DNA of 50,738 nucleotides, from the IMG/VR virus record IMGVR_UViG_3300005807_000006, positions 1-50,738 of that record. One strand, given 5' to 3'. Origin of the DNA: a virus (taxonomy: Duplodnaviria; Caudoviricetes). Each line of letters starts with the position of its first letter. Within the stretch, counting starts at the first letter, position 1. Shown in pieces: positions 21,426 through 50,738 of the stretch. The translations under genes were made by a program, and so were the position numbers. The notes below the pieces were generated by a model. The model searched no databases and was not told where the DNA came from. It saw only the letters and a list, made by a program, of their open reading frames with translations.

Positions 21426-21764
21426 ATGGCACGGAATATGAGTTTTGCAATGACCACAGACCAATTTAGAGCGCGAACCAAGACGGTTACTCGCAGGTTT
21501 GGATGGTGGTTTCTTAAGCCCGGCGACGAAGTGCGCGGGGTGGAAAAGGCAATGGGCCTGCAGAAAGGCGAGAGAATTAAACCGCTTGGAATGATACGCA
21601 TTGTTTCTGTGCGACCAGAGCTGCTGAACGCAATTACAAAGGACGATGTAATTAAAGAGGGGTTTCCAAATTGGACGCCAGCGCAGTTTGTGCAAATGCT
21701 GGTAGATCACTACCGCACTGATCCGGCTGCGACGGTAAACAGGATTCAGTTTGAGTACCTATAA
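21426..21764 (+). CDS. ASCH/PUA-like domain protein
   Basis: MSFAMTTDQFRARTKTVTRRFGW...LKPGD...EGFP; GAGG RBS; stop codon lies in TAAC of first attC-like site. Confidence 0.75.
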   Translation: MARNMSFAMTTDQFRARTKTVTRRFGWWFLKPGDEVRGVEKAMGLQKGERIKPLGMIRIVSVRPELLNAITKDDVIKEGFPNWTPAQFVQMLVDHYRTDPAATVNRIQFEYL

Positions 21765-21835
21765 CGGCTTTAATAAGCTGCTGAGTGAAACGAAGTCGGT
21801 TTGATTTATTTGTTATATTATTTGAGGATGGGATT

Positions 21836-22114
21836 ATGGGTACTGGATTATTAGTGAAGGGATATTTACATAAAACCCCTATTTACGAGAAGGGTGATTG
21901 GTGTACAGAAGTTTTTATCGGTGACAGATTATTAGTTGATTCAGGTGGATTTGGCAGCGAATTCTTGGAATACGCAAAAATTTATGAAGTAATTGATGAT
22001 AATGGATTAACAAAATTAAAAAGTGAAGACGGGACGATTATAGATGAACGGCACACGAAAAATACAATGCCGTTTTTCGTGAAACTTCTACACCCTGCAC
22101 CTAACGATAGATAA
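21836..22114 (+). CDS. Cassette ORF, hypothetical
   Basis: GAGGATGG RBS, ATG 21836; bounded by GTTATAT/ATATAAC. Confidence 0.65.
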   Translation: MGTGLLVKGYLHKTPIYEKGDWCTEVFIGDRLLVDSGGFGSEFLEYAKIYEVIDDNGLTKLKSEDGTIIDERHTKNTMPFFVKLLHPAPNDR

Positions 22115-22194
22115 ATATAACATCAAGTTAAAAAGCGCGTTTTGCATCGGCTTGAATACATTGTTAGGATGAAATTAACTAAGGAGTAAGGGGT

Positions 22195-22371
22195 ATGACA
22201 GATTATTACAGCCAGTTTCACCCGAAAGAAAGGACAGGAAAAGAGTGTAAAAAAGTTAAGTGCGAGAGATATAATGATTACTTGGCGTGGAAGCTAGGGA
22301 GCAGTGCTTTAGAGTATTGTATGGCGTGTAAAAACGCTCACGTATCACAGTATAAGAGCAGCAAAAAATAA
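22195..22371 (+). CDS. Cassette ORF, 58 aa Cys-containing
   Basis: Hand-translated MTDYYSQFHPKERTGKECKKVKC...; stop inside TAAC. Confidence 0.6.
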   Translation: MTDYYSQFHPKERTGKECKKVKCERYNDYLAWKLGSSALEYCMACKNAHVSQYKSSKK

Positions 22372-22453
22372 CGTCGTTTTTAACTTGCGCCATCACCAAA
22401 CTATAAATAGAGACGCTGAGCTTTCAGCGTCAAGTTGAAAAACCTTGTTATAT
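22366..22453 (-). other. attC-like recombination site
   Basis: Arms GTTTTTAACTTGCGC / GCGTCAAGTTGAAAAAC pair with one extra G and one extra T in the right arm. Confidence 0.8.
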
Positions 22454-22475
22454 GGCAGTGAATTAAAGGAAAGAC

Positions 22476-22703
22476 ATGAACATAGACTGCTCAAAAATAG
22501 CAAACAAAAGTGACTTGCTGGTATTAGTTGGGGTGGTGATTATTATTGCTCTTCTTGGCGTGGCAGTTATGTTAACAATTTATGCTGATAACTTTATTGC
22601 TGGATTTTTTAGCGCAACAATTACTTGGAAATGGCATGGCTGGATTTACAAGCCGATAGATAGAATGCTGGATAAATTGTGGCCACCAGACGATGCCATA
22701 TAA
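22476..22703 (+). CDS. Cassette ORF, membrane protein
   Basis: Hydrophobic segment; stop inside TAAC. Confidence 0.65.
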   Translation: MNIDCSKIANKSDLLVLVGVVIIIALLGVAVMLTIYADNFIAGFFSATITWKWHGWIYKPIDRMLDKLWPPDDAI

Positions 22704-22769
22704 CGACCAAGCTCAGTTGTTGCGACTGAGCAAAGCGAAAGAGCAATCAACTGGAGTGAATTGTTATGA
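22698..22769 (-). other. attC-like recombination site
   Basis: ATATAAC gaccaa GCTCAGTTGTTGC...GCAATCAACTGGAGT gaatt GTTATGA; extra G and T in right arm. Confidence 0.85.
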
Positions 22770-22972
22770 GATTTAATGTAGGAAAATATTATAAACACAG
22801 TGGCGGCGAAATGATGCACGTGTTAGTTGCCACCAAAACAAAAGTATATGGACAAACAATGATTGCTGAATTTAATGATGGCAGCTTTAGACCTGTTGGC
22901 AATGACGAGACAAGCTCTGTTAATTGGGTGGAGTTAGACGATATTACTGAATGGGATAATTTGTTCTCATAA
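22766..22972 (+). CDS. Cassette ORF, hypothetical
   Basis: ATG overlaps GTTATG; stop inside TCATAAC; GKYYKH motif. Confidence 0.7.
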   Translation: MRFNVGKYYKHSGGEMMHVLVATKTKVYGQTMIAEFNDGSFRPVGNDETSSVNWVELDDITEWDNLFS

Positions 22973-23044
22973 CGGCTTTAATAATCCGCTAAGTGTAACG
23001 AGATCGGTTTGATTTATTGGTTATATTATTTTGGAGACAAGTAA

Positions 23045-23221
23045 ATGAGTACGTTTGAAACAAAAGAAGAGTGCCTTCCTGTTGAAAAATTTATATGGGG
23101 TTGTATAGGTTTTGACTATAGGGAATTTGCAGGTATTAAAGAATTATCTTTTTCTGATCTATTGACATTACGAAGCTTAATTGATCGTCAGGCAAACGAT
23201 TTATTTAAGAACAGCGAATAA
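23045..23221 (+). CDS. Cassette ORF, 58 aa
   Basis: Hand-translated MSTFETKEECLPVEKFIWG...; GGAG RBS. Confidence 0.6.
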   Translation: MSTFETKEECLPVEKFIWGCIGFDYREFAGIKELSFSDLLTLRSLIDRQANDLFKNSE

Positions 23222-23348
23222 ATATAATACTAAGTTAAAAAGCGCGTCTTTTTGCGCCGTCCGCGTTTATGCAATTGTTATATTTTTTTTATTCGATTAA
23301 TACGTTTTGATTTTTAAAATATATGATATTTTTATTAATAGGTGATTT

Positions 23349-23528
23349 ATGGACGGGTATACGAAAGAAGTTATTGAAACTTTAGAAAATGAATTAAAAA
23401 CCACTGATACAACAGGTGAACTATTAATGCCGATTCTTGATGAAATAATAGCGGCTAGAAGCTGTGATGATAGATCGCTATTATGCGAAAAACTATTAAT
23501 TGAAGCACGAATATTCAACAGAATATAA
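23349..23528 (+). CDS. Cassette ORF, 59 aa
   Basis: Hand-translated MDGYTKEVIETLENEL...; AGGTG RBS; stop in left end of site. Confidence 0.6.
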   Translation: MDGYTKEVIETLENELKTTDTTGELLMPILDEIIAARSCDDRSLLCEKLLIEARIFNRI

Positions 23529-23596
23529 TACTAAGTTAAAAAGCGCGTCTTTTGCGTCTTTTTGAACGAGCAGTTATAAAGTTATTGGAGAATATA

Positions 23597-23821
23597 ATGA
23601 TTGAACCTAAGGGTTTGTTAAGTGGCGAGTTTTTTGAAGAGCAAACCATAATATGCCCCGAGTGTGGTGGTTTTGGATATATAGGAGACTATGAGGCAAC
23701 AAGCGAGCCTTGCGAATTCTGTGAAGGTCAGGGAGAATACGAACAAAAAGTACCGGTTTCATGGGCTACAATCAAAGAAATATACGCAATGGCTGTTAAA
23801 CATCTTGAGGATAAATCATGA
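23597..23821 (+). CDS. DnaJ-type zinc-finger small protein
   Basis: CPECGGFG...CEFCEGQG; GGAG RBS before ATG 23597. Confidence 0.65.
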   Translation: MIEPKGLLSGEFFEEQTIICPECGGFGYIGDYEATSEPCEFCEGQGEYEQKVPVSWATIKEIYAMAVKHLEDKS

Positions 23822-24822: not shown

Positions 24823-27800
24823 GTGAACAAGATGCGAGTTTATAAACATAAATGGGTGCAAGTCGGCAGTGGGACAGAAAATTACACTGGAGAATGTGTA
24901 TATAGAGATAAATGTCAAGAATGTGGAGTTCTATCTTGGCGCTGGAAGGACGGTAATAGACAGATAGACTTAAAAAATAGTAATAATTGCACTATAGTTA
25001 AAAATAAGGATAAATTAAATGATCTTGAAGATGAAGCAACATGTAAGCATGGTTTTTTGGTTGGTTGTGAAAAATGTTAGAACTTATTACGCCAATGTGG
25101 AGGCCAGCTACTAAGTCAAAAAACACTCTATTAGCCGCTGGTTACTCTCAAAAGCAACTTAACGACATTGGTAAAGTGTTCGTAGAAAGAAACTGTGGCA
25201 AAGAGATTGACGGAGCATCAAGCCTATATTCTGCAATGGTGAGAAGTTCTGGGTCAGCTCACAATATTAAGCCGCCAAAAATAGACCCGCCAAAAACCGT
25301 GGAGATTAAATCAGATGAAAAAATAGAAAGCGATACAAAGCAAGCTCAGGAAGTTAAAAGCCAAACAACCAAAATGTCAAAACATGAAGCAATCGCTTGG
25401 TATGATGGCAATAGGCTAGAGTAAGCGCGGTTTAGAGAAACTAAAACAGGATATGAAAAAATGACCTATATCGAACTTGAAAAACAATATTTTAACGATA
25501 AATTTGTAAGAATATATATCGACCACATAACAACCATCGATGATGGTATTTCAGAAAACGTTAGATTTACTAGGATTCATATGGTTTGCGGTTCGTTTGT
25601 TGATGTGAAGGAAGATTTTATTGAGGTGCTAGCTAAAATCGATCTAAAAAATAAAGAAGATCAACCAAATAATTAAAGGATAATAGAATGAAAGTTGAAG
25701 CTAGCAAAGTTACAAAAATAAAAATAACAGGTGTTAATAGATTAGACCCTGTGCATGTATTCCTAGAAGACATAGAAAAAGGCAAAGGTAGGATCACAAT
25801 AACTTGCTACAGCAAAGCGTGGTCTTCGTATTGGGGTGGTATAGGAGATAAATCTATCAGTGAATTCTTTTGTTCTTGTAATGATAATTATTTAACTGAA
25901 AATCTAGCTCCTGATCTTGATAGCACTATTTACGACATCGATAAAATAAGGCTGGATGCAGAGAATAAAAATATGGATTGTTATAGGGACGACCCCTGGA
26001 ACGATTTTGAGTTCATGGTAAAAATGTACGGCAATGATCAGTATAATTGGGACGACTCTCTACCAAAAACAACCAATCACAAATATTATTATTTATGTAG
26101 AATTATCAAAGCTGTTAAGGATGGTTTGAATGATATCAATAAAGCCTTAAGTAACGAAAAACCAGCATCACAAAACTAAGAGAGAACCATAAATTTTAAG
26201 GTAGAATTAATATGAATATTAATGATAAGGAGTTTAAATTTGAAATGAGCTATAAGGACTTATTCAAGCGGGCTGTAATTAATGCAAAACCTAAAACATG
26301 TGGAAGCGCACCGAAATGGGTAGCTGTCATGGATACTTTTTCTCTAGGCTCATATTACGCAATAGAATTATGCCGAGCATTGGATTTAGATCCTTATGCG
26401 AAGTCTTTAAACACTGTTAAATGCATAACATGCAACCCATAACTTAAATAAATTATGAATCACGAAATTAAAAACATGAAATTCTCAGGATTTGGAAGCT
26501 GGAAACAATGTAGCCATTGCGGTGCGACATTTTGGGAAAAGTTGTGGCACATAGGAGGCTACAAGAGTAAATACGAGCCACCATGTCGGTTAGATCTAAG
26601 TGAAGAATGGAAAAATAACGCAGAAATAGTAGACAATTAAACATAGGATATAATTATGAGTAAATTTGATGAATCATTTAAAGAGCCTTGGATGTTTAGT
26701 AATGGACATTTAATGTTGTCAGGCAAATATACTAAAGACGAAGCTTTGTCAATATTTAAGGATTATGACGGAGATGAGCATCTAGGTTTGGATGACTTAA
26801 AAAAGGATAGGGTTAGGTTTGGATTTACTCCAAAAGACATTGAAGACTTTGAAGATCTGGATGTTTCTTGCTGGTATTCAGGGGCAAGTGGGAAAGGTTC
26901 AAAGGAAGTCTGGTATGTTGAATAACTTAAACACAGGAGATAATTAAATGAGAACGCAAACGTTACACAGTAAAATAAATAGAGCATTTGAAGTATGGAA
27001 TACAAGCTTTGACAACACTTTGTTCATCGAAATACTGCCGAGAATTAAAAAAGAATGGCGTAAATATGTTAAAGAAGACGGTGATTCAAGGTCTGGAAAT
27101 GATACATACGGTTACGAAGAGAAAGAGAGCATCAAAAATAATATGATATATATTTCAGACCGATGGAGATGTTCATTTAGACTAAAATGGTTAATTGACG
27201 GTATTGAAAATGGCAAAATATAAATAGGAGATATTAAATGATAAAAATATTTAAATACACGCTTGATAAATTAATACCTTATGTACAACCAATTGAAATG
27301 CCTATTAATGCAAAAATAATTTCAATGAAGAATCAGTGTGAAGAGATCGTATTGTGGGCAGAGGTGAACGCTGTCAATGCTTTAGAGATTAGATCTTTTG
27401 TAGTATTGGCTACTGGCGATACTAAGCTAGATGATCCTCTAAAATATCATGCAACATTGCAATTTTTAGAGGGCAATTATGTTGTACATATTTATGAACT
27501 AATAGGAGATAATTAAGTGAGTGAACGTGAAATATATTTACCCATAATAACTGACGAAATGTTTGAGATGTTTAACGAAACTTGCTTAATGGAGTGGAGT
27601 AAAGAGTTAAATAAACCTAGCTGGACTCAAATATCAGTTGAATTTTTAGCAGTTTTATTAACTAAAGAACATGGAGAATAATACAAATGAGAAAAGTAAC
27701 TATATTTGAATGGAAGGATATTAAAAAGGAGTTCGAGAAATGAGTGAATTAAAAATAAAATTTAAATCAGAAAAAGAAAAGGATGAGTTTATCAAGTGGT

Positions 27801-28246
27801 TTTTTAGTGATGCAAATATGCAAAATATGGATTTCTATTTTGGCAAAAAAACAATTGTTTACAACGGTAAAGACGAGATGAAAATAGGATGAGTAAATCA
27901 AAAATACCAAATGCAATAATACAATTTAAGTTAGATCTTAAAAATATTTACGGAAAAGATCAAACAGAACAGGTAAAAGGTGAAGCGATAGCAATTAGAT
28001 ATTGTATCCGGTATTTGGAGCGATTAAACAAAGGAGAAATAAATAATGAGTGATTTAATATTTGCTAAAACAATGATAACAACTAAACCGAAAATAGAAT
28101 ACATCCCAAAAGGCTCTATGTGCATGTCATGCTATCGTCAAAACTTAAATTGCAGTAGCTACCCTTTTTCAAAGATGCCGGTTATCTACCAATCGCTCGG
28201 TTATTTCCACGTTAGATGTACTTTTTACGAGAGATTAAATGATTGA
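24823..28246 (+). CDS. Run of small hypothetical phage genes (24823, 25074, 25461, 25688, 26212, 26455, 26656, 26948, 27238, 28046 and shorter ORFs)
   Basis: Tightly packed co-oriented ORFs with AGGA/GGAG RBS; no attC-like sites here. Confidence 0.6.
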
Positions 28247-28889
28247 ATTGATAAATATAGACTGTATGGAATATATGAAAAATTGCAAAGATAACGCGTT
28301 TGATTTGGCTATTGTTGATCCTCCATACGGAATAGGTGAGAGCGGAAAAACCAACAAATCTAGGAGTAAGCTTGCGACAGCAAAAGATTATAAGTCTTAT
28401 TGTGGAGATGATTTAAAACCGCCAGGCAAAAGTTATTTTATAGAATTAAAAAGAGTTAGCAAAAATCAAATAATATGGGGTGCAAACCACTTCATGCAAA
28501 ATATATGCTTAGGATCGAGTTGTTGGATTGTGTGGGATAAGCAAACAGGAAATTCAGATTTTGCAGATTGCGAACTAGCCTACACAAGCTTTAATACAGC
28601 AGTTAGAAAATATACGTTCCAATGGTCTGGAATGCTTCAGGGAAATATGAAAAATAAAGAATTTAGAATCCATCCGAATCAAAAGCCAGTTAACTTGTAT
28701 CAATGGTTGTTAAAATATTATGCAAAAGATGGTGATAGGATACTAGACACCCATCTAGGCTCTGCATCTAGCGCAATAGCTGCTCATTACGGCGGTTTTG
28801 ACTTTGTAGGGTGTGATCTAGATGAGTATTATTTTAAAGCTGCAAAAGAAAGGTTTAACGACCAGACCAGACAAAAGGCAATGTTTTGA
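28239..28889 (+). CDS. Orphan DNA methyltransferase (N6-A/N4-C, beta class)
   Basis: IVDPPYG catalytic motif, HPNQKP, ILDTHLGSAS SAM-binding motif. Confidence 0.9.
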   Translation: MIELINIDCMEYMKNCKDNAFDLAIVDPPYGIGESGKTNKSRSKLATAKDYKSYCGDDLKPPGKSYFIELKRVSKNQIIWGANHFMQNICLGSSCWIVWDKQTGNSDFADCELAYTSFNTAVRKYTFQWSGMLQGNMKNKEFRIHPNQKPVNLYQWLLKYYAKDGDRILDTHLGSASSAIAAHYGGFDFVGCDLDEYYFKAAKERFNDQTRQKAMF

Positions 28890-34022: not shown

Positions 34023-34291
34023 TGATTGAATTATTAGTTAGCGTAAACAAAAAGCCTGTTGATTTGGGCAATGGAATTACACGGCATAGCTCTATAAATA
34101 AATTATGTGCGATTGATAAAATCAGAATGACTTATAACGGCCACTATTACGCTCACTTAGTAAACAAAGAGAGTGACGCTCCATTCAACTCAGGAGGAGA
34201 ATGGGGGTCGTGGGTTGGTTTTTTTAAGAAAGAAAATAAGCATGTGCGACTACCTATTATCAAAATTGAAAGGCAAGAAGTAGATGTATAA
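34022..34291 (+). CDS. Hypothetical, stop in first attC-like site of array 2
   Basis: AAGGAGG RBS; TAA within GTATAAC. Confidence 0.65.
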   Translation: MIELLVSVNKKPVDLGNGITRHSSINKLCAIDKIRMTYNGHYYAHLVNKESDAPFNSGGEWGSWVGFFKKENKHVRLPIIKIERQEVDV

Positions 34292-34327
34292 CAATTAAGT
34301 TAACTTGCTTGAATGGAGCGCAGCGTA

Positions 34328-34618
34328 ATGAAAATCAAAGTTAAACGCCTTGTTATCTTTTTACATTGCTGGTTTTTCGGGCATGTGCCAGATGATAAAA
34401 ACACAGTATTTGATACAGATGAATATACCTATGGCTGGCATATGATGTGTAAGCGTTGCGGAATATTGGATATAGAACAGCACGAACTTATGACTGGCAG
34501 CAGAAGTTATAAGGTTAAGCAATTTGTGATTTTCTGGCTCTATCGTAGATGGTGTCCGGAGCCATGCAAAGACTGCGGTAGTCGATTCGGCAAGCACGAT
34601 AACTGCATACCGTTTTGA
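34328..34618 (+). CDS. Cassette ORF, Cys/His-rich (HCWFFGH, CKRC, CKDC)
   Basis: GGAG then ATG 34328 inside the site. Confidence 0.65.
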   Translation: MKIKVKRLVIFLHCWFFGHVPDDKNTVFDTDEYTYGWHMMCKRCGILDIEQHELMTGSRSYKVKQFVIFWLYRRWCPEPCKDCGSRFGKHDNCIPF

Positions 34619-34673
34619 AAGATAACGGCTTTAATAAGCAGCTAAGTGCAACGAACGACATGAAGGAATTGTT

Positions 34674-34907
34674 ATGCAAATTGAATTGATGAGGAGAACC
34701 GCAACGGCATTGATGCCAGGGCAATCCATAAAAATTTCCCGAGACAAGATGGTAACGGCGGCTGAAGGTATTCTTTACTCTCTGCTATTTTCTGTACGCA
34801 GAGTGGATATTAAGATCTTTGCGGAACAGGTGGCGCAAAACTGGGGGGTTACGATGACTGAGGACGCTATGACGGGCGAATGGACAATGTTCAAGCCGCA
34901 TGCATAA
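34674..34907 (+). CDS. Cassette ORF, hypothetical
   Basis: Begins in GTTATGC, ends in GCATAAC. Confidence 0.7.
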   Translation: MQIELMRRTATALMPGQSIKISRDKMVTAAEGILYSLLFSVRRVDIKIFAEQVAQNWGVTMTEDAMTGEWTMFKPHA

Positions 34908-34997
34908 CGCCATGCTCAGGAGCGCAAAAAGCACCCACTGAACTTTAAATTTAACTAAAAACCGCGGCGTTTTTTGTGTCGCCTGGAGCTAATTGTT

Positions 34998-35198
34998 ATG
35001 TATGAATGCACAGCAAAGCAGTACTGGAAAAAGATTTACAGGGTAATGCGCGTGGCAATACGCGAAGCAAATAAGGCCAGCATGGATGTGATGATCTACG
35101 GCACGGGCGCAGTAATGATCCCTAAAGATGGTGGCGACCCAAAACACGTCCCTCTTGCTAATTTGGACATGAATAATTTAACTGATCATAGGGAATAA
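34998..35198 (+). CDS. Cassette ORF, hypothetical
   Basis: ATG in GTTATG with GGAG 9 nt upstream; stop in TAAC. Confidence 0.65.
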   Translation: MYECTAKQYWKKIYRVMRVAIREANKASMDVMIYGTGAVMIPKDGGDPKHVPLANLDMNNLTDHRE

Positions 35199-35276
35199 CG
35201 ACCTTGAGCTAACCTGTGAGCGGTAGCGAATCCGGTTAAGTGATTGGTTATACAGATTTAATACGAGGATTATAAA

Positions 35277-35555
35277 ATGAAAATTAATTTACAGGTTAAT
35301 ATTGATGGAATGTACTGGAGTGGTGGTGCTGGTATTGAGGTGCCGGAATTATATAGGAAATGTTTTGAGCCAATGAAAACAGGTGATGAGCCGCTTGTCG
35401 CTATGGTTACTGGCGAGATTATGGAGCAAGAAGCTAATATTGTAATGAAAACAAGAAGTGATGCCGCCGAGATATTAGGGCGAGAATTAGCAGAGCTAAT
35501 AGTTCGTGAGATGAAAGCAAAAGATACGCACAATGGTTACGAGAAGGCTGTATAA
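35277..35555 (+). CDS. Cassette ORF, hypothetical
   Basis: GAGGA RBS; bounded by GTTATAC/GTATAAC. Confidence 0.7.
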   Translation: MKINLQVNIDGMYWSGGAGIEVPELYRKCFEPMKTGDEPLVAMVTGEIMEQEANIVMKTRSDAAEILGRELAELIVREMKAKDTHNGYEKAV

Positions 35556-35611
35556 CGACCTTGAATTAAAAAGCGCCGTTTTTTGGCGTCTTTTTGAATG
35601 ATTTGTTATGT
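35550..35611 (-). other. attC-like recombination site
   Basis: GTATAAC gaccttga ATTAAAAAGCGCC...GGCGTCTTTTTGAAT gattt GTTATGT; extra G and T in right arm. Confidence 0.85.
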
Positions 35612-35628
35612 GATTTACGGAGGACATT

Positions 35629-35820
35629 ATGACAGAAGACAGAATTGAAAAAATACAAAAATTAAACAGCGAGATAAAAAACTTTAAGGACTGCTACTGC
35701 GGCATTGAATTGTGGGGTGGTAGAGATACTTTTGTAAGTGCCGAGGTATTGATGTATTTTTTGATCGAGAATCCACACTTCCAAGAGATCGCGGATAATA
35801 TTAATAAAATGGACACGTAA
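35629..35820 (+). CDS. Cassette ORF, hypothetical
   Basis: GGAGG RBS; stop in TAAC. Confidence 0.7.
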   Translation: MTEDRIEKIQKLNSEIKNFKDCYCGIELWGGRDTFVSAEVLMYFLIENPHFQEIADNINKMDT

Positions 35821-35892
35821 CGATTAAGTTAAAGGGCGCGGCTTTATCGCGTCCATTTTGAACGCTCTGTATAACAAAGCGAGGAGATAAAG

Positions 35893-36057
35893 ATGATTTT
35901 AAAAGATGCGTATGATGAAGGCGGAAAGCTTCTTGGTGATGAATGTGTAGATTTATCAGGATTACAGGAAGACACTAAGAAAGCGATAATGCAATTAATT
36001 TACCTTGATGAAACTGTAGATATTTATAATGACGCGCTGAATAAGAAGACTACATAA
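35893..36057 (+). CDS. Cassette ORF, 54 aa
   Basis: Hand-translated MILKDAYDEGGKLLGDECVDL...; GAGGAG RBS. Confidence 0.6.
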   Translation: MILKDAYDEGGKLLGDECVDLSGLQEDTKKAIMQLIYLDETVDIYNDALNKKTT

Positions 36058-36138
36058 TGACCATATTCAGAAGTGAACGAGTGCCAGCGAGTGAATCTGT
36101 TGGAGCTATTTGTTATATTTTTTTAAGAGGGTTTATAT

Positions 36139-36339
36139 ATGATAATTATTGATAAAGGCGTGGCCATGCCTACCGAAAATGGACGCTGCAAATACCCGTG
36201 GAAAGATATGGAGGTTGGTGATTCTTTTTCACTACCTAAGTTAAGTATCTCAACAGGCGCGGTAAATGAACGATATAAGCCGAAGAAGTTTGTTGCTCGT
36301 AAAGACGGCGATGGTTATCGCGTGTGGCGGATTAAGTAA
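36139..36339 (+). CDS. Cassette ORF, small phage DNA-binding-like protein
   Basis: KYPWKDMEVGDSF...G.RVWR motif familiar from small phage proteins. Confidence 0.65.
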   Translation: MIIIDKGVAMPTENGRCKYPWKDMEVGDSFSLPKLSISTGAVNERYKPKKFVARKDGDGYRVWRIK

Positions 36340-36422
36340 ATATAATACTAAGTTAAAAAGCGCGTCTTTTGCGTCTTTTTGAATGACCGGTTATTTAATT
36401 TAAATAAATGCGAGGAAATAAA

Positions 36423-36704
36423 ATGAAATTACCTATAAATTATGAGAATCTGCACTACACAGAAAGAAGGGCTGTGCGTGAGGAGTATGTTAAGCAGCAA
36501 GATGGGAAGTGCAGCCATTGCGGAGAGCCGCTAAATTGTAAGCCTGCTGGTAATATAGTAAATAAACATGTAGATAAAAAACTATTCCCAACAGGCTTTT
36601 TTAAGTGGCCAGTGCATCTGCACCATAGCCATAATACAGGTATGACTATTGGAGCGGTGCATAACCATTGTAATGCGGTGCTGTGGCAATACCACGGCGA
36701 ATGA
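36423..36704 (+). CDS. Cassette ORF, HNH/endonuclease VII-like
   Basis: QDGKCSHC...HLHHSHNTG...HNHCN. Confidence 0.7.
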   Translation: MKLPINYENLHYTERRAVREEYVKQQDGKCSHCGEPLNCKPAGNIVNKHVDKKLFPTGFFKWPVHLHHSHNTGMTIGAVHNHCNAVLWQYHGE

Positions 36705-36814
36705 CACATAACGACATTTAATAACCTGCGGCATAAATAGCTTGCAGTAAACACGATGAGGGTTGACCGTCTGGTTGATTTTATTGTTATATTTTTTAAT
36801 TGGAGGATTTTAAA

Positions 36815-37045
36815 ATGAGTGAAGATTTTATAAGGAATAGCTTGGTAACTGCTTTTGTATGCGTTGAGTGCGGTAGCAATTTAAGTCTATCTTATAAAAG
36901 CAAGAAAGGCAGCGGTAGAATGGTAGATGATGAGCCAACAGGCGCGGCAATGGTTAAAAACGTGATTTACATTTACCCTTGTGAAAAATGCCTAGAGCCT
37001 GCCATTAAAGCTAAACAGGCAGTAATGGCTTTAATGGAAATATAA
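36815..37045 (+). CDS. Cassette ORF, Zn-ribbon
   Basis: CVEC...CEKC; GGAGG RBS; stop in ATATAAC. Confidence 0.65.
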   Translation: MSEDFIRNSLVTAFVCVECGSNLSLSYKSKKGSGRMVDDEPTGAAMVKNVIYIYPCEKCLEPAIKAKQAVMALMEI

Positions 37046-37140
37046 CATCAAGTTAAGAAGCGGTTAAATATGCAATGACGAGGGACTCAAATTCTGGTGG
37101 GAAAGTCAGAGTTTATAATTTTTAACTGAGGAAATAGAAG

Positions 37141-37380
37141 ATGAAATTTGAGCCAAATGATTTTTTTGGAACAGTACATGTACAGGTTAAACACAGCAAG
37201 TTACTTGCTAATGGAGAGCCTAACAATTTTTGGCGAAATGCACTCTATGTGTGTCAGCAAGATGATGCACATGTAGTGATTTATGCAGATGGCACAAAAG
37301 AAGTCCTAAAACAAAGAACGAAAATACGAATGACACATGACGGCTTTAATAAGCCGCTAAGTGAAACGAAGTCGGATTGA
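37141..37380 (+). CDS. Cassette ORF reading into downstream site
   Basis: GAGG RBS; C-terminus THDGFNKPLSETKSD encoded by site 37335-37394. Confidence 0.6.
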   Translation: MKFEPNDFFGTVHVQVKHSKLLANGEPNNFWRNALYVCQQDDAHVVIYADGTKEVLKQRTKIRMTHDGFNKPLSETKSD

Positions 37381-37412
37381 TTTATTGGTTATATTTTAAA
37401 TGAGGATTAATT

Positions 37413-37625
37413 ATGGGTTATGAAAAACCAGAAGCGGATGAGTGGGTTCAGCCGGTAAGAAAAGATTACAAGTTAGCCTGCTGTGATTGCGGGTTAGTGC
37501 ATAACATGGATTTTAGAATTAAAAAAGGCCGGATTCAATTTAGGGTACGGCGCAATAATAGAGCTACTGCTGGTATGCGGGTCGGGATGGGGCTAAGAAA
37601 GAAAAAAGACGGGACATGGCTTTAA
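37413..37625 (+). CDS. Cassette ORF (CCDCGLVH motif)
   Basis: GAGGA RBS; motif familiar from small phage proteins. Confidence 0.7.
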   Translation: MGYEKPEADEWVQPVRKDYKLACCDCGLVHNMDFRIKKGRIQFRVRRNNRATAGMRVGMGLRKKKDGTWL

Positions 37626-37706
37626 TTGATACCTAACGTCAAGTTAAAAAGCGCGTTTAGCGTCCGATTTTGAACGCCTTTTTATGCGGGGTAAAAGGAT
37701 AAACAA

Positions 37707-37964
37707 ATGCAACAAACAAAACTAAGCTCTTTAATTGAGTCATTTATAAATGTATTAATTGGGTATGGAGTAGCTTTAATTTCACAATTATTAATTTTCC
37801 CGATGTTTGGTATTCATGTTTCTCTAAGTACAAATTTATATATAGGCGCATGGTTTACGCTTATCAGTTTAATTCGCAGCTACATTATACGGCGATGGTT
37901 TAATGCAAAATTACATAATGCGGCGCAAGCTTTAGCTAAACAAGGTGCCGAACGATTCAGATAA
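37707..37964 (+). CDS. Cassette ORF, two-TM phage membrane protein
   Basis: SLIESFINVLIGY...SLIRSYIIRRWFN. Confidence 0.7.
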   Translation: MQQTKLSSLIESFINVLIGYGVALISQLLIFPMFGIHVSLSTNLYIGAWFTLISLIRSYIIRRWFNAKLHNAAQALAKQGAERFR

Positions 37965-38028
37965 CCAGCAGGCGGGTCTTATCGACTGTCTGCAATTGCC
38001 TTGTTATGTGCAGGGCATGGAGGTAAAA

Positions 38029-38220
38029 ATGAACGAAGAACAAACAGAAATGGAAAAATGCACAATCTACACGCGCCGAGGTGATAGGTATGAGATTAAG
38101 TGCAGACTTGGATTGTGGAGTGTTGATGCACCATACGGGTTGGCTTTGATAAATGAGGCTAATCACTATTTTCAGCAATACAAAGCTGATGGAGAATACA
38201 ACAAGTTACTTGATACATAA
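38029..38220 (+). CDS. Cassette ORF, hypothetical
   Basis: GGAGG RBS; bounded by GTTATGT/ACATAAC. Confidence 0.65.
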   Translation: MNEEQTEMEKCTIYTRRGDRYEIKCRLGLWSVDAPYGLALINEANHYFQQYKADGEYNKLLDT

Positions 38221-38249
38221 CGATCTTGAGCTAACAGGAGAGGAACGAA

Positions 38250-38501
38250 ATGAACAAAGTAAATGTAGAGACGAATCCAGTTAAGCGGCATATTATGCGT
38301 AGCGATAAAGGAATATTGGATTGGCTGCAAAATGAATGCGGTGGATCGTTTAGCTGTAAGCGACAAAGAGACCCTTTTGTCGCTTCACCCACCTTTGGTA
38401 ACCTAGACGAGTGGCAGATATTTACCATTCCTTCGCAGCACGTTAAAGGCGTAAGCATAAGGGATGCTTTTAGCAATGCAATGAATAAGTGTGGCGCATA
38501 A
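38250..38501 (+). CDS. Cassette ORF starting inside the site loop
   Basis: AGGAGAGG RBS in loop; stop in GCATAAC. Confidence 0.6.
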   Translation: MNKVNVETNPVKRHIMRSDKGILDWLQNECGGSFSCKRQRDPFVASPTFGNLDEWQIFTIPSQHVKGVSIRDAFSNAMNKCGA

Positions 38502-38579
38502 CGGACATGCTCAGAAGTGAGCGAGCGACAGCGAGTGAATCTGCTGGAGCTACTGGTTATATTTTTATTGGAGAATGTT

Positions 38580-38765
38580 ATGTGTAAATATATTGAGGTT
38601 AAAAATGGTGCGCCACATCCCCGCACAAGATGGTCAAGCGAGTGCGGGTTTGATCTAGTTTTAATGCAAGGATATACACCTAATTTTGGCAAGCAAGAAG
38701 AATATGATAAAAAAATATTACCCGCTGGTGGGTGCATGAAATGTAAAGCCGAGATTGAAACATAA
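38580..38765 (+). CDS. Cassette ORF, Cys-containing
   Basis: GGAG RBS; stop in ACATAAC. Confidence 0.6.
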   Translation: MCKYIEVKNGAPHPRTRWSSECGFDLVLMQGYTPNFGKQEEYDKKILPAGGCMKCKAEIET

Positions 38766-38842
38766 CATCAAGTTAAAAAGCGCGTCTTTTGCGTCTTTTT
38801 GAACGACCGGTTATTTAATTTAAATAAATGCGAGGAAATAAA

Positions 38843-39001
38843 ATGAAAGGATCTGTTATTGTGCGCTGTATTGGTGTTGACAATAAGCAACACCAATGCG
38901 AGCCAAACAAAGACACTTGCTTGTGCGGTATAAGTGTTAAGCGTAAAAAATGCTTACGTGATGATTATATGTTATCTAGTTGTTACAAATGCACATACTA
39001 A
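38843..39001 (+). CDS. Cassette ORF, 52 aa Cys-rich
   Basis: Hand-translated MKGSVIVRCIGVDNKQHQCEP...; GAGG RBS. Confidence 0.6.
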   Translation: MKGSVIVRCIGVDNKQHQCEPNKDTCLCGISVKRKKCLRDDYMLSSCYKCTY

Positions 39002-39434
39002 TAAATCACACTAACACCAAGTTAGAAAGCACATTAGTTGATGCTATATGATACAAATGTTACAATACTCATATAAATCAAACAGGTTAAAAGTAATGAT
39101 AACGACATGCTTAAAATCACTGAAAAAAATAATCAGTGGATTATCTCAGAAAACGGAATTATTTTGTTTAGCGAGATTAAAACACTCCCCGAGGCTCTAG
39201 CAATTGCTAAGAGTCGCGGATTTGTATTATCAGAAATCAACAAAAAGGCAGCGTGATGAAAGAGAAAGGATATATTAAAAATTGTTATTTTGAAATTAAA
39301 TCTAATGATAAAAAAATATTTGATCCGGATGGCACACCATATTTAGATGGCTATGCAATAATTCCATTGGAAAAGTTTAAAAAATTAGAAACACAACTTG
39401 GAACTGGGCAAGACGGTGATAGACCAGACCAGCC

Positions 39435-42751: not shown

Positions 42752-45376
42752 TTAAGATAAAGTGACGATTGCATTTGTATCAAGATCGACATCAAACCGT
42801 TTTAATGAATCATGATTTGGCATGATTATCACGTCAGACACTTTCGGCAAAGGATTATGCAAAATGTCTACTCTCTGCCCGATTTGCGGAATAAATGGCA
42901 ATTTAGTTTCAAGCTTGTAGCCGTATTTATCAATAAATGCTATTTTTAATAAGTTCATGATTTTCCTCTATTTAAGTTGAGTGTACTATTAAAAGCTATT
43001 TTCCTGACTTGACGTTGGATTTTTTCCGGTAATTGCCAGTATTTTCTACCCGCATGTATTCCATAGCCCGATACAAACATATGATTATCGATAACATAAA
43101 CTTTAGCCAAAGCCGTAGCTTCTTCTTTTGTGTTAGCCCAATTAATTTCAATTCCATCCACACAAATATGAAAACCCCCGTCTTTATACGCTTTAATTTC
43201 AACCTCACTACCCAGATTTACATTACGCAGCTCAGTAGATGTAGCCATTTCTACTCCATTTACTTGTTTCATTACCTTACCCTCTTTGTTTAAGTGTATT
43301 TTCGTTAACAAATACTTTAGTTGCAGATATAATAGATAATAACCTAGCCGCCGCCAGATGCTTGTTTGTATGTAGTAATTTAACAACAGACTCTAACTGC
43401 TCGGTTAAATATTTTATGTCATCATTATCCATTTGCTTAACTATTAAAAATTAAATGAGTAGCTTCGCTAATATTTATAAGACCAGCCTCTAATTTTTTA
43501 GCCGCATCTTCAATTTTTTCATCATAGCTATTTAGTTGAGACAGTGTTTTAAGGCTTATTGAAAATATTGATATTGATGTTTTGGTTATTAGTTGATGTC
43601 TAATTGAGTTGTTCATTTTCTTGCTCCTCTTTGTTGTGAATTAATTTAATCATGCTCTGGCTCGCAGAGCATTGTTAAGTTAACTGTTAAGATGATTGTT
43701 GCCTTTTTAACTCTACAATCCCCAAATGACAGTTTTTGTTGCTTTTTTTGTAAGCCGCATCATAAGTATGATGCCTACTTACTGATTTTTTGTCGTTATA
43801 CCATTCGACTACAGCATATTTAAACATTTTAAAGTCCTCTTTTGTTTGTGTATTAATTTGTTATTTTACCCGCACTAAGCTCTTTAAAATCAAATCTTTA
43901 ATTGTTATAATAAGGGTTATAATTATCAGTACAACCCTCGTTATTAATGTTGTTAAAAGCCCTAGCTTTTTTGTTATTATCTAAGACGCTTTGCGATATC
44001 TGATGGGTCTCTTTTACATTTTTATAACCCGTTATGCAGCCTTTTCCTGCGTTTTTTGTGGCTACAACCATTTGGTCAAACATAGGGTCACTAATTATCT
44101 TAAAAGATGGATGTATAACTATTTCTTTATCCCCATTTGGTCTAGTGATATACAGCTCGACATGTTTATTAGTTTCGTAAGTTGTTTTCATCATTTTGCC
44201 CTTTTGTTTGTGTGTTTGCTTAATCTGCAATCAGTATAACAGATTGTTAATGTTAGTCAAGCGTTAGTTTAAACCTTTTTAACTTATTTTGTACTAAAAT
44301 CCAACAACCATCTTTTAATTGCTCAATCTCACGACCATTTGATATTTTAACGTTAAGATTGCTAACTGTCATATTCATCTCACTAGCAAGCAATACCCTC
44401 ATTTTAGCTTTAAACGCTCGCTTTTCAGCACCAACAAGCTTAATGTCGCTGTCTGTGTATTTTTCTAACATCTCTTTAATTTTCATTTTAATCTATCCTC
44501 GTTAAATTGATTGCAGCTGCGCTGTATGCTGTATTTCTTTGATCGCCCTTGCATTCCTTTTGTCCATTCGTTGCCACATTGCGAACATCGGTAAGCCCTG
44601 CGTCCATCAAAGGCTCTACCTTTTTCAGGATTTTTTTGCCCGCATATGCTACATGTATTCATTTTAACCTACCTTTCATATCGTTTAAAATTTCGTGAAA
44701 CAGTTTCGTAGCTTTCGGATCACTTGACTCAAGAGCTACTTGTACAAGTTCCGGCAAACTGCGAAGTCGTTTAGCAACTATCTCAATTGCTAGTGTTTCT
44801 CTATCGTGAGTGCTCATTGTTTTTTTACCTTTTCAGTTAATTTATCAATCAAAGAATTTAATTCTCGCAAATCATCATTTTTTATATCAAGCCAAATTAC
44901 TTTCGTATATTTATTTCTATGACTGTGTTTTTTGATAAGTGTTTTTATTTTTTCTAATTCGTAAGTGCTCATCATTTAGGTACTCTTTTAAAAATTCTGT
45001 ATGAAGTATTTATATAACCTAAATTATTAGCAAGATGAATTTCGAGCCGAAAGCTGAAAGAATACTTTGGCTTATAGTTTTTTGAGTTTTCAATCATTTG
45101 TTGTGTGTTCATTTCCCCGTTCCTCGTTTTGTGAATTAATTTAATCATGCCCCAACCCGTGGAGCACTTGTAAGAATGCTAAGTTAGTAGTCAATAATCA
45201 TCTTCATCTAAACCAATCGAACACTCAGTCCATTCAAAATCGACCGGCAAACAATCTGCATCTTCAATATCTCTAATTGCAATAGAAATTGCACAAGACT
45301 CAATCGATATTGATGTCTTCACATATTTAGTACCAGATTCTAAAATCTCGTTAATAACTTCTTGTTTAGTTTTCAT
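42752..45376 (-). CDS. Minus-strand block of small ORFs, probable early region (42752-42958, 42955-~43272, 43898-~44193, 44253-44486, 45191-45376 and shorter)
   Basis: Only minus-strand coding block; GAGG RBS complements (CCTC) upstream of several CAT. Confidence 0.6.
44233..44260 (-). promoter_or_regulatory. Sigma70 promoter with extended -10
   Basis: Minus strand TTGACT-16 nt-TATACT with TGn. Confidence 0.7.
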
Positions 45377-45416
45377 TTTCCCGTTCCTCTTTTGTGTATT
45401 TGCTTAAGTTGTAACT

Positions 45417-45444
45417 AGCATAACATATCTATAATGTTAGTCAA
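45417..45444 (-). promoter_or_regulatory. Sigma70 promoter with extended -10
   Basis: Minus strand TTGACT-16 nt-TATGCT with TGn; shares TAATGTTAGTCAAGCGTTA with the 44.25 kb promoter. Confidence 0.7.
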
Positions 45445-45763
45445 GCGTTATTTTAAAGATAATGAAATTAAATTTGGGATGTAGTATAATAAGAATATAG
45501 ACAACTATAATAAACAATTAAATTTAAGAGTTTCTAAAATGAATTACGAGCCAGATTTGTCAAAATATACATTAGTTAACAACAAAGTATTTTCACAAGC
45601 TACTGATTTTATTAGATATTTCGATAAATTGCAGATGAGTGATTACACTGTTTACAGCTCAAGAGATCACAAAGGTTTTGCACTAACATCAGCAAAAGCA
45701 GATAAAAAATACATCAAATATGGTTTAGCTAGCGAGCTTTAAAAATTAACGATATTATAAATC

Positions 45764-50197: not shown

Positions 50198-50497
50198 GTG
50201 TCTAACCGAAAAACAAAAGAATCAAACTGCTTTCAAACTCAAAAGTTAATTAAGCGAGAAGTAGAGGCTATAAAAGCGTTAAATAATGGAGATGCGTCTG
50301 AATACCAACAAAAGTTGGCGTTAGCGGTTATTGTTAATAAGTTTTGCAGATCGCAAGACCTACTTTATATTCCAAATTCATCCGACGAAACAAGCTTCCT
50401 AAATGGGAGGGGTTTTGTCGGTCAAAAAATACTAAAAATAATAAACGTACCGATAGGCAAATTAATCAACGAAGAAGAGACCGAAGACAATGAATAA
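50198..50497 (+). CDS. Post-portal small protein (Bbp19-like)
   Basis: TSFLNGRGFVGQKI motif; AGGAGG RBS; between portal and scaffold. Confidence 0.65.
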   Translation: MSNRKTKESNCFQTQKLIKREVEAIKALNNGDASEYQQKLALAVIVNKFCRSQDLLYIPNSSDETSFLNGRGFVGQKILKIINVPIGKLINEEETEDNE

Positions 50498-50738
50498 TTT
50501 TTTAACAAGAAAATATTTAGAAGAAGCCCCTAATGATGGAGGCACTGGAGATGGAGGCACTCCCCCACCAGACATAAAGCAGGAAGGCGGCACACCAGCC
50601 GAGCCTAAAAACTTTCATGAGACAATGCCTGAGGATTGGAGAGATCAAATAGTTGAGTCTTTAGGAATAGAAGATCAAGGGACTAAAGACAAACGACTAG
50701 CCCAATTAGGCAGGTTTTCTGACTTTAACAGCATGAGT
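50490..50738. repeat. Terminal direct repeat, right copy
   Basis: Identical to 37-285. Confidence 0.95.

Follow-up and report, generated by a model that had tools for sequence, protein, structure and literature searches.

The virus analysed here has a complete genome of 50,738 nt (~50 kb) with a 249-bp direct repeat at its ends, and we refer to this whole stretch as the window. Two arrays of short elements (Table 1) divide ~6.6 kb of early or accessory DNA (~13% of the genome) into single-gene cassettes: array 1 has 17 junction sites between 17 single small + strand ORFs (34328-39001), and array 2 has seven, A to G, between small ORFs at 21402-23821. The 24 junctions are spaced 177-310 nt apart, and 20 of them are detected by covariance models. 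Each cassette gene has its own RBS and lies on the strand used for phage transcription; genes for RecT, a NinB-like protein and nucleases lie directly upstream of array 1. Every one of the 17 gene junctions within array 1 bears an nnATAAC...hairpin...GTTATnn element or its remnant, in which nnATAAC is followed by 4-8 nt, a short helix, a variable stem-loop, the matching helix, in which a base is unpaired, then 5-6 nt and GTTATnn. The stop codon of the upstream ORF is the TAA within ATAAC at 11 of the 17 array 1 sites, and at 16 of 24 when both arrays are counted. A preliminary description of this DNA reported a cassette-like array of 16 palindromes plus a half-site. The array is real and larger than noted, with 17 junctions in array 1 and a second array of seven, and the earlier count was close: 13 of the 17 array 1 sites are detected by covariance models at E<=1, and four are remnants, of which sites 10 and 14 are half-sites that retain the 5' half alone, and sites 13 and 17 keep their end boxes with the inner geometry lost. 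Array 2 lies outside the region that the preliminary description assigned to the array.

Table 1. Arrays and junction sites in the window; R1, R2 and R3 are the covariance models, and the strict scan is the geometric scan, described in the text.
Feature	Position	Strand	Description	Matches
Array 1	34286..39065	+	17 junction sites
Array 2	21759..23579	+	7 junction sites (A-G)
Site A	21759..21818	+	family II; AAC, GTT intact; G16/T23	R1 38.7 bits; R3 26.8 bits, E 1.1e-4; strict scan
Site B	22115..22169	+	family I 5' half, degenerate 3' arm	R1 23.9 bits; R3 E 0.17
Site C	22366..22453	+	terminal structure long; G and T bulges separated by 6 bp	R2 25.9 bits, E 1e-4; R3 28.6 bits, E 3.8e-5
Site D	22698..22769	+	family III; next start codon within GTTATG	strict scan; R1; R3 E 0.0096
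Site E	22967..23026	+	family II	R1 35.4 bits; R3 E 0.029
Site F	23222..23283	+	family I 5' half; AAC to AAT	R1 19.7 bits
Site G	23523..23579	+	family I; AAC to AAT; terminator-like	R1 56.8 bits
Site 1	34286..34358	+	position 16 an unpaired A; 3' arm inside next ORF	R1 31.9 bits; R3 E 0.094
Site 2	34620..34677	+	family II, 3' arm truncated	R1 18.6 bits
Site 3	34902..35001	+	family III, 100 nt	R2 38.5 bits, E 4.8e-8; R3 55.1 bits, E 3.2e-12
Site 4	35193..35253	+	family IV; A16/T23; core common to phage H101 attC sites (alignment)	R1 58.3 bits
Site 5	35550..35611	+	textbook G16/T23; also terminator-like	strict scan; R1; R3 E 8.3e-4
Site 6	35815..35875	+	G16/T20/T24; 3' box GTATAAC replacing GTTAT	R1 59.6 bits
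Site 7	36052..36118	+	family III; AAC to AAT	R1 14.4 bits; R3 E 0.068
Site 8	36340..36396	+	family I; AAC to AAT; G16/T23	R1
Site 9	36706..36792	+	G16/T23	strict scan; R3 E 0.016
Site 10	37040..37130	+	family I, 5' half alone	unmatched by models
Site 11	37335..37394	+	family II; AAC to GAC	R1
Site 12	37631..37687	+	family I; 3' box TTTAT	R1 51.5 bits; R3 E 0.01
Site 13	37959..38009	+	ATAAC/GTTATG boxes, inner hairpin atypical	unmatched by models
Site 14	38215..38250	+	family IV, 5' half alone	reading of sequence
Site 15	38496..38562	+	family III	R1 25.2 bits; R3 E 0.034
Site 16	38760..38816	+	family I; G16/T23; terminator-like	strict scan; R1; R3 E 0.008
Site 17	39009..39065	+	CTAAC...GTTAC boxes, 3' arm degenerate; array 1 ends here	unmatched by models

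Several controls exclude a chance origin of the junction elements. A strict geometric scan called for [CT]AAC/GTT[AG] boxes, an L helix of 3 bp, a bulge, a stem of 6 bp, and a T bulge with 2 bp or more past it. The + strand of the window gave six such sites and the - strand none, against ~0.3 expected. Most of 30 dinucleotide shuffles gave none (maximum three on a strand), and the rate in unrelated viral loci was 0.52 for each 50.7-kb strand. The scan misses 14 of 14 real Vibrio sites and thus has no validated sensitivity. In an alignment of the sites, 81.2% of cells are paired, compared with 73.4 ± 1.3 in shuffles, none of 500 of which reached 81.2%. The alignment has seven pair changes that affect both sides, and slid controls are 35-50% paired, values to be read with the alignment having been fitted to the model.

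The elements have the organization of integron attC sites, for which the bottom strand has been described as 5' RYYYAAC, a 5-6 nt spacer and L', then L'' (with a G at position 16 and a T at 23/24, 6 bp apart), a spacer and GTTRRRY (Nivina et al., 2016; PMC5027507). The same inverse core, RYYYAAC...GTTRRRY, is found here: 19 of 24 sites retain the AAC triplet (the exceptions being AAT in 7, 8, F and G, and GAC in 11) and 20 of 24 the GTT triplet (all except 6, 10, 12 and 14). The spacer, L boxes and extrahelical bases are likewise present, with a 5' spacer of 4-8 nt that exceeds the canonical length in some sites. Read by hand, nine sites fit the bulge positions 16 and 23-24 on the + strand, namely 5, 8, 9, 11 and 16 with G16/T23, 4 with A16/T23, 6 with G16/T20/T24, and A and D from the strict scan. 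Of these, 5, 8, 9, 11, 16, A and D agree exactly with the published bottom-strand layout; several further sites have a bulge on the same arm with looser geometry. Genuine attC sites of Vibrio anguillarum beside intIA share this layout, with A or G at 16, T20 and T24.

We compared the junctions with bacterial attC sites using three covariance models, built from seven phage sites (R1), from 14 real V. anguillarum attC sites beside intIA (R2), and solely from the bottom strands of 150 genuine bacterial attC sites near intI genes (R3). They are stand-ins for IntegronFinder's own models, and the E-values they give are rough, as the models were only briefly calibrated. R1 detected array 1 sites 1, 2, 4-9, 11, 12, 15 and 16, to which R2 and R3 added site 3. 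Below E 0.2, R1 has 16 matches across the whole window, and each is a + strand junction site, which likewise argues against chance. With R2, too, the 14 highest-scoring window matches are all + strand junction sites, led by one of 38.5 bits (E 4.8e-8). The validity of R2 as a detector was checked in 78 bacterial intI loci, where 152 of its 152 matches are on the intI-sense strand; the sites used for R3 were drawn from these matches. The top 17 R3 matches in the window are 17 of the 24 junctions, every one + strand, with E-values between 3.2e-12 and 0.2 (seven of the 17 at E<=0.01), the next match in the window having 9.6 bits and E 4.3. Site 3 is the best match in the window to genuine bacterial attC sites with both R2 and R3. 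Reciprocally, a search of 80 bacterial intI loci with R1 gave 53 matches at E<=10, with a top score of 52 bits (E 6.7e-8), and all 53 lie upstream of intI on the intI-sense strand, which is the bottom strand of the array. Window sites aligned with attC sites from phage H101, IMG/VR and Zobellella have a mean column identity of 69%. In both sequence and fold, the window sites are homologous to attC sites that marine gammaproteobacteria carry in their chromosomal integrons (Vibrio, Alteromonas, Zobellella). The preliminary description had recognized attC architecture and proposed a covariance-model search; models from genuine attC sites do detect the elements, and with these stand-ins the junctions are the top R3 matches. 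Two stems around an internal loop are a common design, and the palindromes could in principle be unrelated regulatory elements that came to resemble attC by convergence; we give this hardly any weight, since it is disfavoured by the model searches, with covariance cross-detection in both directions and sequence shared beyond the boxes.

No integron-integrase accompanies the sites. A six-frame search of the complete record gave no match to the tyrosine recombinase family PF00589, with the control giving a positive result in 14 of 14 genomes, and Pfam scans of 87 ORFs (67 + 20) contained no recombinase, in agreement with the preliminary description. Nor did we find intI, attI or Pc adjoining an array, as in a complete integron. 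Because attC-type sites occur in a complete genome without a tyrosine recombinase, the arrays are two CALINs, defined as clusters of at least two attC sites with no integron-integrase nearby (Qi et al., 2023; PMC9892861). Integrase-less attC clusters of this kind, in which attC sites separate single ORFs and the phage lacks intI, have been published for virulent phages (Qi et al., 2023), so the novelty suggested earlier was overstated as to kind. By contrast with the arrays described in that work, which have two or three sites (three attC sites and four ORFs in phage TJE1), there are 24 junctions in two arrays here. Sites of phage H101 (L191/NC_029094) match R1 and R2 at 42-46 bits and have a core in common with window site 4, although they are possibly not the PH101 sites tested by Qi et al. 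(2023). The only syntenic relative (L072; RecT 70% identical) has different small ORFs and zero attC-like sites. The arrays resemble the sedentary chromosomal integrons of marine gammaproteobacteria (Vibrio, Alteromonas, Zobellella, Thalassotalea) in their nnnTAAC/GTTAnnn R boxes, L box, bulges at 16 and 20/23/24, one ORF per unit, within-array site families and stop codon often in the first box; they differ from those integrons in lacking intI, attI and Pc, in sharing no cargo, and in that the bottom strand codes. Their terminal structures are shorter than those of Vibrio attC sites (53-100 nt here versus ~126 nt).

The feature that is new is the polarity of the sites, which is the mirror image of that in bacterial integrons and was missed in the preliminary description, whose interpretation as a whole is partly supported. 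The extrahelical G16 and T23 of the window sites are on the 3' arm of the coding strand, and the coding strand is therefore the attC bottom (recombinogenic) strand. Gene and bottom strand are the same in 17 window intervals, opposite in none and ambiguous in five, as against none, 13 and three in bacterial intI loci, and one, nine and two in a real Vibrio array; thus, the window lacks the canonical cassette arrangement, with the ORF on the top strand and the bottom strand antisense. Inverted polarity also prevails in other viral contigs (42 versus 2) and is seen in phage H101, where 13 of 13 annotated CDS are on the strand identified as bottom. Phage TJE1, unlike the window, is canonical, with three sites on the - strand and genes on the + strand. 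The text passages of Qi et al. (2023) do not mention polarity relative to genes.

The cargo is phage-like or orphan, in line with the preliminary description, to which it looked like phage genes: four of 18 array proteins match PHROG families, two cassette proteins have homologues elsewhere as ordinary phage genes, and none of 26 cassette proteins has a match in 80 bacterial integron loci or in the Vibrio array. These observations, together with the opposed polarity (17 same and none opposite, versus none same and 13 opposite in bacteria), the presence of two separate arrays, and genes with their own RBS on the phage transcription strand, make it very unlikely that the arrays are an inert, decaying relic of a bacterial chromosomal integron gained by illegitimate recombination, even though decay of boxes and half-sites is visible and prophages with chromosomal integron fragments exist (MK672802; Qi et al., 2023).

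Site families are common to both arrays, 11 kb apart, with homology that begins at TAAC and stops 7-11 nt beyond GTT. Between copies, homology stops near the R boxes, and an exact boundary between AA and C is not demonstrable. Sites 8 and 16 are 98.7% identical from the L box through 38 nt beyond GTT. Copies of the same family (8 versus 16, 8 versus G) have identical stems and differing unpaired spacers, which is contrary to a recent clean crossover between AA and C, and is expected of homology-driven exchange or of selection on the stem. It is possible, although we consider it unlikely, that the elements are attC-descended hairpins that now act independently of IntI, as weak terminators, as stabilizers or processing sites at mRNA 3' ends, and as homology patches for swaps by RecT and NinB. 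Every mRNA includes the hairpin, because this lies on the sense strand that is transcribed; many sites keep the hairpin without AAC or GTT; RecT, NinB-like and nuclease genes adjoin array 1, and attC arrays in other viral contigs likewise adjoin RecT/Bet/Erf and exonuclease genes. Homologous shuffling is documented (Comeau et al., 2014; PMC4122927) for PeSLs, the composite promoter-terminator stem-loops of T4-like phages (Arbiol et al., 2010), which are likewise conserved intergenic stem-loops beside small variable genes in phage hyperplastic regions, with a proposed role in modular shuffling. By contrast with PeSLs, which combine an early promoter with a terminator and act through homologous recombination, our sites have an attC fold and no enrichment of promoter-like sequences (71 observed versus 69.7 ± 7.9 in a scan for the sigma-70 consensus only), so no early promoter fused to a terminator stem-loop was found. 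Four sites (5, 8, 16 and G, called family I) match an intrinsic-terminator pattern, with a GC stem and then a T run as in Rho-independent terminators, but these are just four of 24, terminator-like sequences show no clear enrichment (16 observed versus 10.8 ± 3.4), the T run is absent from the other 20, and the outer ATAAC/GTTAT helix, spacer and fixed bulges are additional. Moreover, an RNA element or homology patch needs no AAC/GTT boxes, 5-nt spacer or exact 16/23 bulges across families unrelated in sequence, and IntI1 recombined five of six phage attC sites tested, two of the six from PH101 (Qi et al., 2023).

We therefore favour, as probable though far from certain, the reading that the two CALINs consist of genuine attC sites at which a host IntI deletes, reorders or exchanges single-gene cassettes. 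As a single strand, each site can adopt a fold made up of an R box, an unpaired spacer, an L box whose extrahelical bases are at 16 and 23/24, and a tip that varies. We propose that, when the phage infects a host that carries an integron, host IntI would bind the folded + strand and cut between ATAA and C, usually at the stop codon of the upstream gene, and the unit deleted, reordered or exchanged would be an attC body, 5'UTR, ORF and TAA. The + strand is the non-template strand for transcription, and also the lagging-strand template if forks run with transcription; as the bottom strand is in these positions, the array should be excision-prone. Losses of AAC (5 of 24) and GTT (4 of 24), with two half-sites, suggest that much of the array is uncuttable today; at site 11 the change to GAC has removed the TAA stop, such that ORF 37141-37380 runs into the site. 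An alternative use of the sites would be to let the whole integrase-less phage enter a host integron through attI/attC as a giant cassette, via host IntI, in a lysogeny-like state. A circularized attC-bearing genome is formally a cassette, the phage lacks its own integrase, and one Vibrio prophage adjoins a chromosomal integron (Qi et al., 2023). Nonetheless, we regard this as highly improbable, since a single site would suffice, leaving 24 sites at one-gene spacing unexplained, no repressor or other lysogeny gene was recognized among the phage ORFs, and the cassette proteins are unmatched in 80 intI loci. One consequence of the inverted polarity counts against the favoured exchange of cassettes by host IntI: genes traded with bacterial integrons would land antisense, in both directions.

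Seventeen small ORFs on the + strand occupy positions 34286-39065 of the window, and each is followed by an intergenic element with the layout nnATAAC, 4-8 nt, a short helix, a variable stem-loop, a matching helix with an unpaired base, 5-6 nt, and GTTATnn. We built a covariance model, R1, from seven well-aligned sites and ran it without filters across the whole window. All 16 matches with E<0.2 are junctions on the + strand, confirming the attC-like elements that the preliminary description placed at 34286-39031; the same search extended them, uncovering a second array of seven sites (A-G) at 21759-23579. R1 detects 18 of the 24 junctions at E<=1, and models built from bacterial attC sites add sites 3 and C; there are four remnants, sites 10 and 14 being 5' halves and sites 13 and 17 degenerate. 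In an alignment fitted to the model, 81.2% of cells are paired, compared with 73.4+-1.3% after shuffling (0 of 500 shuffles reach 81.2%), and seven pairs have compensatory changes on both sides; slid controls of the alignment are only 35-50% paired. A strict geometric scan, which misses all 14 of 14 real Vibrio attC sites and serves as a chance control only, found six sites on the + strand and none on the - strand, compared with ~0.3 per strand in dinucleotide shuffles and 0.52 per 50.7-kb strand in unrelated viral DNA. We abandoned gapless inverted-repeat searches and plain minimum-free-energy folds in favour of covariance models, because bulges and the spacer cause those methods to miss most sites.

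The sites form families that are common to both arrays, 11 kb apart: family I (sites 5, 8, 12, 16, B, F and G), family II (2, 11, A and E), family III (3, 7, 15 and D) and family IV (4 and 14). Homology between copies starts at TAAC and stops 7-11 nt past GTT, indicating that it is the attC itself that is repeated. Between sites 8 and 16, identity is 98.7% over 79 nt (36350-36428 and 38770-38848); it starts at the L box, takes in the RBS and ends at the ATGAAA of two genes that are not otherwise related, such that the shared unit is attC, 5'UTR and two codons. AAC has become AAT in sites 7 (36052-36058), 8 (36340-36346), F (23222-23228) and G (23523-23529), which makes the box TATAAT in sites 8, F and G; in site G, the altered box is also where a promoter-like match (TTGAAG, 18 nt, TATAAT) ends. 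The cut site may have been exchanged for a -10 box in these sites. Within 37141-37394, which spans site 11 and the ORF before it, GAC replaces AAC in the site; without its TAA stop, this ORF runs 45 nt into the hairpin before stopping at TGA. The 3' box of site 6 (35869-35875) reads GTATAAC, resembling a 5' (R'-type) box, where GTTAT is expected, as if another site had joined there.

According to Nivina et al. (2016; PMC5027507), the bottom strand of an attC site, which is the recombinogenic strand, begins 5' with RYYYAAC, an unpaired spacer of 5-6 nt and L'; L'' carries extrahelical bases at position 16, where G is usual, and at 23 or 24, where the base is T, with six base pairs from the first to the last extrahelical base; and the site ends with a spacer and GTTRRRY, with cleavage between AA and C. 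Counting from the 3' end on the + strand, G16 and T23 are exact in sites 5, 8, 9, 11 and 16, with A16/T23 in site 4 and G16/T20/T24 in site 6; sites A and D have G16/T23 and pass the strict scan too. For reference attC sites we turned to the integron in Vibrio phage Va_90-11-286_p16 (MK672802; intIA at 27091-28053, cassette array at 28.3-41.4 kb), whose 14 attC bottom strands have the boxes nnnTAAC and GTTAnnn, an L helix that shows covariation, and bulged bases at 16, 20 and 24. A model made from these 14 sites only, R2, has its 14 best window matches at junction sites on the + strand (site 3, 38.5 bits, E 4.8e-8; site C, 25.9 bits, E 1e-4), and in the alignments the sequence common to window and Vibrio sites extends beyond the boxes. 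R2 was validated on 78 bacterial loci, which an IntIA protein query had retrieved: 152 of 152 matches (E<=1e-4) are on the intI-sense strand, the bottom strand of those arrays. A third model, R3, built from 150 of the bacterial sites in these loci, has its 17 best window matches at junctions on the + strand, with E-values, rough for all the models because calibration was short, from 3.2e-12 to 0.2 (seven at E<=0.01); the next match scores 9.6 bits (E 4.3).

The reverse test gave a matching result. In 80 bacterial intI loci, the phage-derived R1 has 53 matches (E<=10), every one upstream of intI and on its sense strand; the highest scores are those of a classic 60-nt Zobellella site (52 bits, E 6.7e-8) and of sites in Alteromonas (51 bits) that closely resemble phage family I. 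R1 has a single weak match (E 0.33) in the Vibrio prophage integron, because its 7-nt loop excludes 126-nt sites, and it was the reciprocal test redone on the 80 intI loci that we used. Two-way model transfer, together with strand and position specificity, leaves little room for convergence, and the window sites are homologous to attC sites of marine bacterial integrons. The attC reading of the preliminary description is upheld by the R2 and R3 matches in the window and the R1 matches at bacterial intI loci; the covariance models, which stand in for IntegronFinder's own, have all their top window matches on the + strand.

The Vibrio array has its annotated genes on the + strand and its bottom strands on the - strand; the window has both on the + strand. 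We scored polarity from the longest ORF on each strand between adjacent sites, with a 1.3-fold margin and a minimum of 35 aa.

Polarity of the genes between adjacent attC sites, relative to the attC bottom strand (number of intervals)
Arrays	Same strand	Opposite strand	Ambiguous
Window	17	0	5
Bacterial intI loci	0	13	3
Vibrio array (MK672802)	1	9	2
IMG/VR viral loci (26 loci, 62 intervals; sample drawn by a pattern derived from the window)	42	2	18

To obtain the viral loci, we scanned IMG/VR with a structural pattern that is strand-symmetric; it returned >119 stretches, of which 80 loci were examined; L229 was left out of the polarity counts, since its array duplicates that of L175. We did not accept the structural pattern alone as evidence for attC, as it is expected to give tens to hundreds of chance matches; R1 has 124 matches (E<=1), many of them arrays, in 45 of the 80 viral loci, in a scan that leaves out L235-L273. 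The viral sites inspected are followed by an RBS and ATG on the same strand, and R2, made from bacterial sites only, agrees with the R1 strand call at every shared viral site. Viral arrays have phage genes for replication and recombination as neighbours, and DNA methyltransferases are the products of many cassettes. In seven loci (L175, L229, L204, L182, L193, L166 and L202), the arrays adjoin RecT, Bet and Erf annealing proteins, with RecE-like exonucleases and replication initiators nearby and frequent DNA methyltransferase or HNH cassettes. One of the viral loci is Pseudoalteromonas phage H101, in which 13 of 13 depositor-annotated CDS of the stretch are on the strand called bottom by both R1 and R2. 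Tetrasphaera phage TJE1 has three sites on the - strand and genes on the + strand, which is the canonical polarity; inverted polarity is therefore common, not universal, among phage arrays. Polaribacter phage P12002L has no R1 match below E 1. Exact matching of a 15-mer from the family I stem to IMG/VR was set aside, as the 67 single matches were all in coding or chance contexts.

The window, 50,738 bp in length, is an entire IMG/VR virus record and is 98% complete by CheckV. Its ends share a 249-bp direct repeat (37-285 and 50490-50738, 100% identical) and the genome is thus complete, the repeat being either terminal redundancy or an overlap left by circular assembly. Genes were recognised for a major head protein, tail-tube-like proteins, a portal and terminase subunits, as well as for RecT, a NinB-like protein, a DNA methylase and nucleases; none was recognised for a polymerase. 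The claim that a tyrosine recombinase is lacking holds: a six-frame search of the window with PF00589 gave no match, with 14 of 14 control genomes positive, and a recombinase of any class is absent among the 87 ORFs scanned. GC skew is positive on the + strand over 1-42 kb. At 42900-45700, GC content falls to ~0.33, the skew is reversed and ORFs are on the - strand; this stretch contains short direct repeats (43634/45129 and 44248/45432) and weak R1 matches on the - strand (44234-44269 and 45418-45453) that are probably plain hairpins.

The phage is without a close relative among GenBank phages: megablast gave no match, the sole blastn match is a 200-nt part of an HNH-like gene (eight Vibrio-phage and four Rhizobium-phage records), and the best match to tail-tube protein B has ~24-28% identity. 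Queries with the endonuclease (four loci, 58-62% identity), RecT (one viral locus, 70%) and DUF5675 (one locus, 44%), and a metagenome RecT scan (five short loci, <=67%), found relatives, none of which has attC-type sites. The sole syntenic relative, L072, has other small ORFs and no sites. At 14280-14830 of L072, small ORFs are joined by a short conserved junction that lacks the hairpin, with TTAAC at the stop and then AATAAAGGAA ahead of the start; this may represent an alternative, or a reduced, form of junction. As for the cassettes themselves, only DUF7220 exceeds the Pfam threshold (one of 20 proteins scanned), four of 18 array proteins match PHROG families, and none of 26 cassette proteins has a match in the Vibrio array or at the 80 bacterial integron loci; for two of them, other viral contigs encode homologues as ordinary genes without flanking sites. 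The DNA methyltransferase gene at 28239-28889 is outside both arrays and has no flanking attC; its product is 53% identical to a methyltransferase within the TJE1 CALIN (an attC cluster without an integrase), and it is homologous to cassettes of viral loci L217, L200 and L208.

We consider use of the window arrays by IntI to be plausible. A host IntI would fold the + strand and cut between ATAA and C, such that the mobile unit would be the attC body, 5'UTR, ORF and TAA. Transcription of the arrays leaves the + strand as the non-template one, and this strand would be the lagging-strand template if forks move with transcription. According to Richard et al. (2024), inversion of the V. cholerae integron, which puts bottom strands on the lagging-strand template, raised excision from <7e-5 to 3e-2; given this and the presumed fork direction, the phage polarity would be prone to excision. 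Some observations speak against active use: motifs have been lost among the 24 sites (AAC in five, GTT in four, and two sites are halves), and identical stems have differing spacers (8 and 16, 8 and G). The main rival explanation is that the hairpins derive from attC sites and are now transcript elements or RecT homology patches, similar to the promoter-terminator stem-loops (PeSLs) of T4-like phages. However, only four of the 24 sites are terminator-like, there is no clear enrichment of terminator-like or of promoter-like sites, and the fixed bulges and AAC/GTT boxes would be left unexplained.

Complete integrons numbered three in a screen of 10,705 phage genomes, which also yielded one In0 element and 17 CALINs of two or more attC sites (Qi et al., 2023; PMC9892861), and integrase-less attC clusters are therefore already known in phages as a kind. 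In the same study, five of six phage attC sites tested recombined with attI1 through IntI1; two of the six were from H101, and these may differ from the H101 sites modelled here. In the literature searched, including the text of Qi et al. (2023) aside from its figures and supplements, we found no description of phage arrays of this size, or of the bottom strand being the coding strand. The novelty suggested in the preliminary description may hold for array size, but not for the kind of element. The reversed polarity is the aspect of the finding that is worth following up.

Integrons are regarded as bacterial devices, and the attC clusters described in phages, in the literature consulted, are small curiosities of two or three sites only. 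Here, ~1/8 of a complete, integrase-less phage genome consists of attC-bounded single-gene cassettes. The inversion of 42 of the 44 decidable cassettes in 26 other viral loci, sampled by a pattern derived from the window, together with H101, suggests a phage-specific cassette system rather than bacterial leakage. More tentatively, and with the balance in our view against it, many phages may share a mirror-image integron world, in which the bottom strand is the coding strand, IntI shuffling is favoured, and insulation of the pools leaves phages with a private pool of cassettes. If so, the folding strand would sit where it is most often single-stranded, as both non-template strand and lagging-strand template, and IntI shuffling rates could resemble those of the inverted V. 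cholerae integron (<7e-5 to 3e-2; Richard et al., 2024). A phage cassette in a bacterial integron, or the converse, would be antisense and silent, insulating the two pools, and phages would hold a private cassette pool that parasitises IntI, with methyltransferases and nucleases as its contents in other viral contigs. The reversed polarity itself predicts that the recombinogenic strand is the coding strand, that excision depends both on the IntI of the host and on how the array is oriented to replication, and that cassettes fall silent once moved into bacterial integrons. The finding bears on the exchange of accessory and anti-defence genes among phages, and on the origin of integron cassettes.
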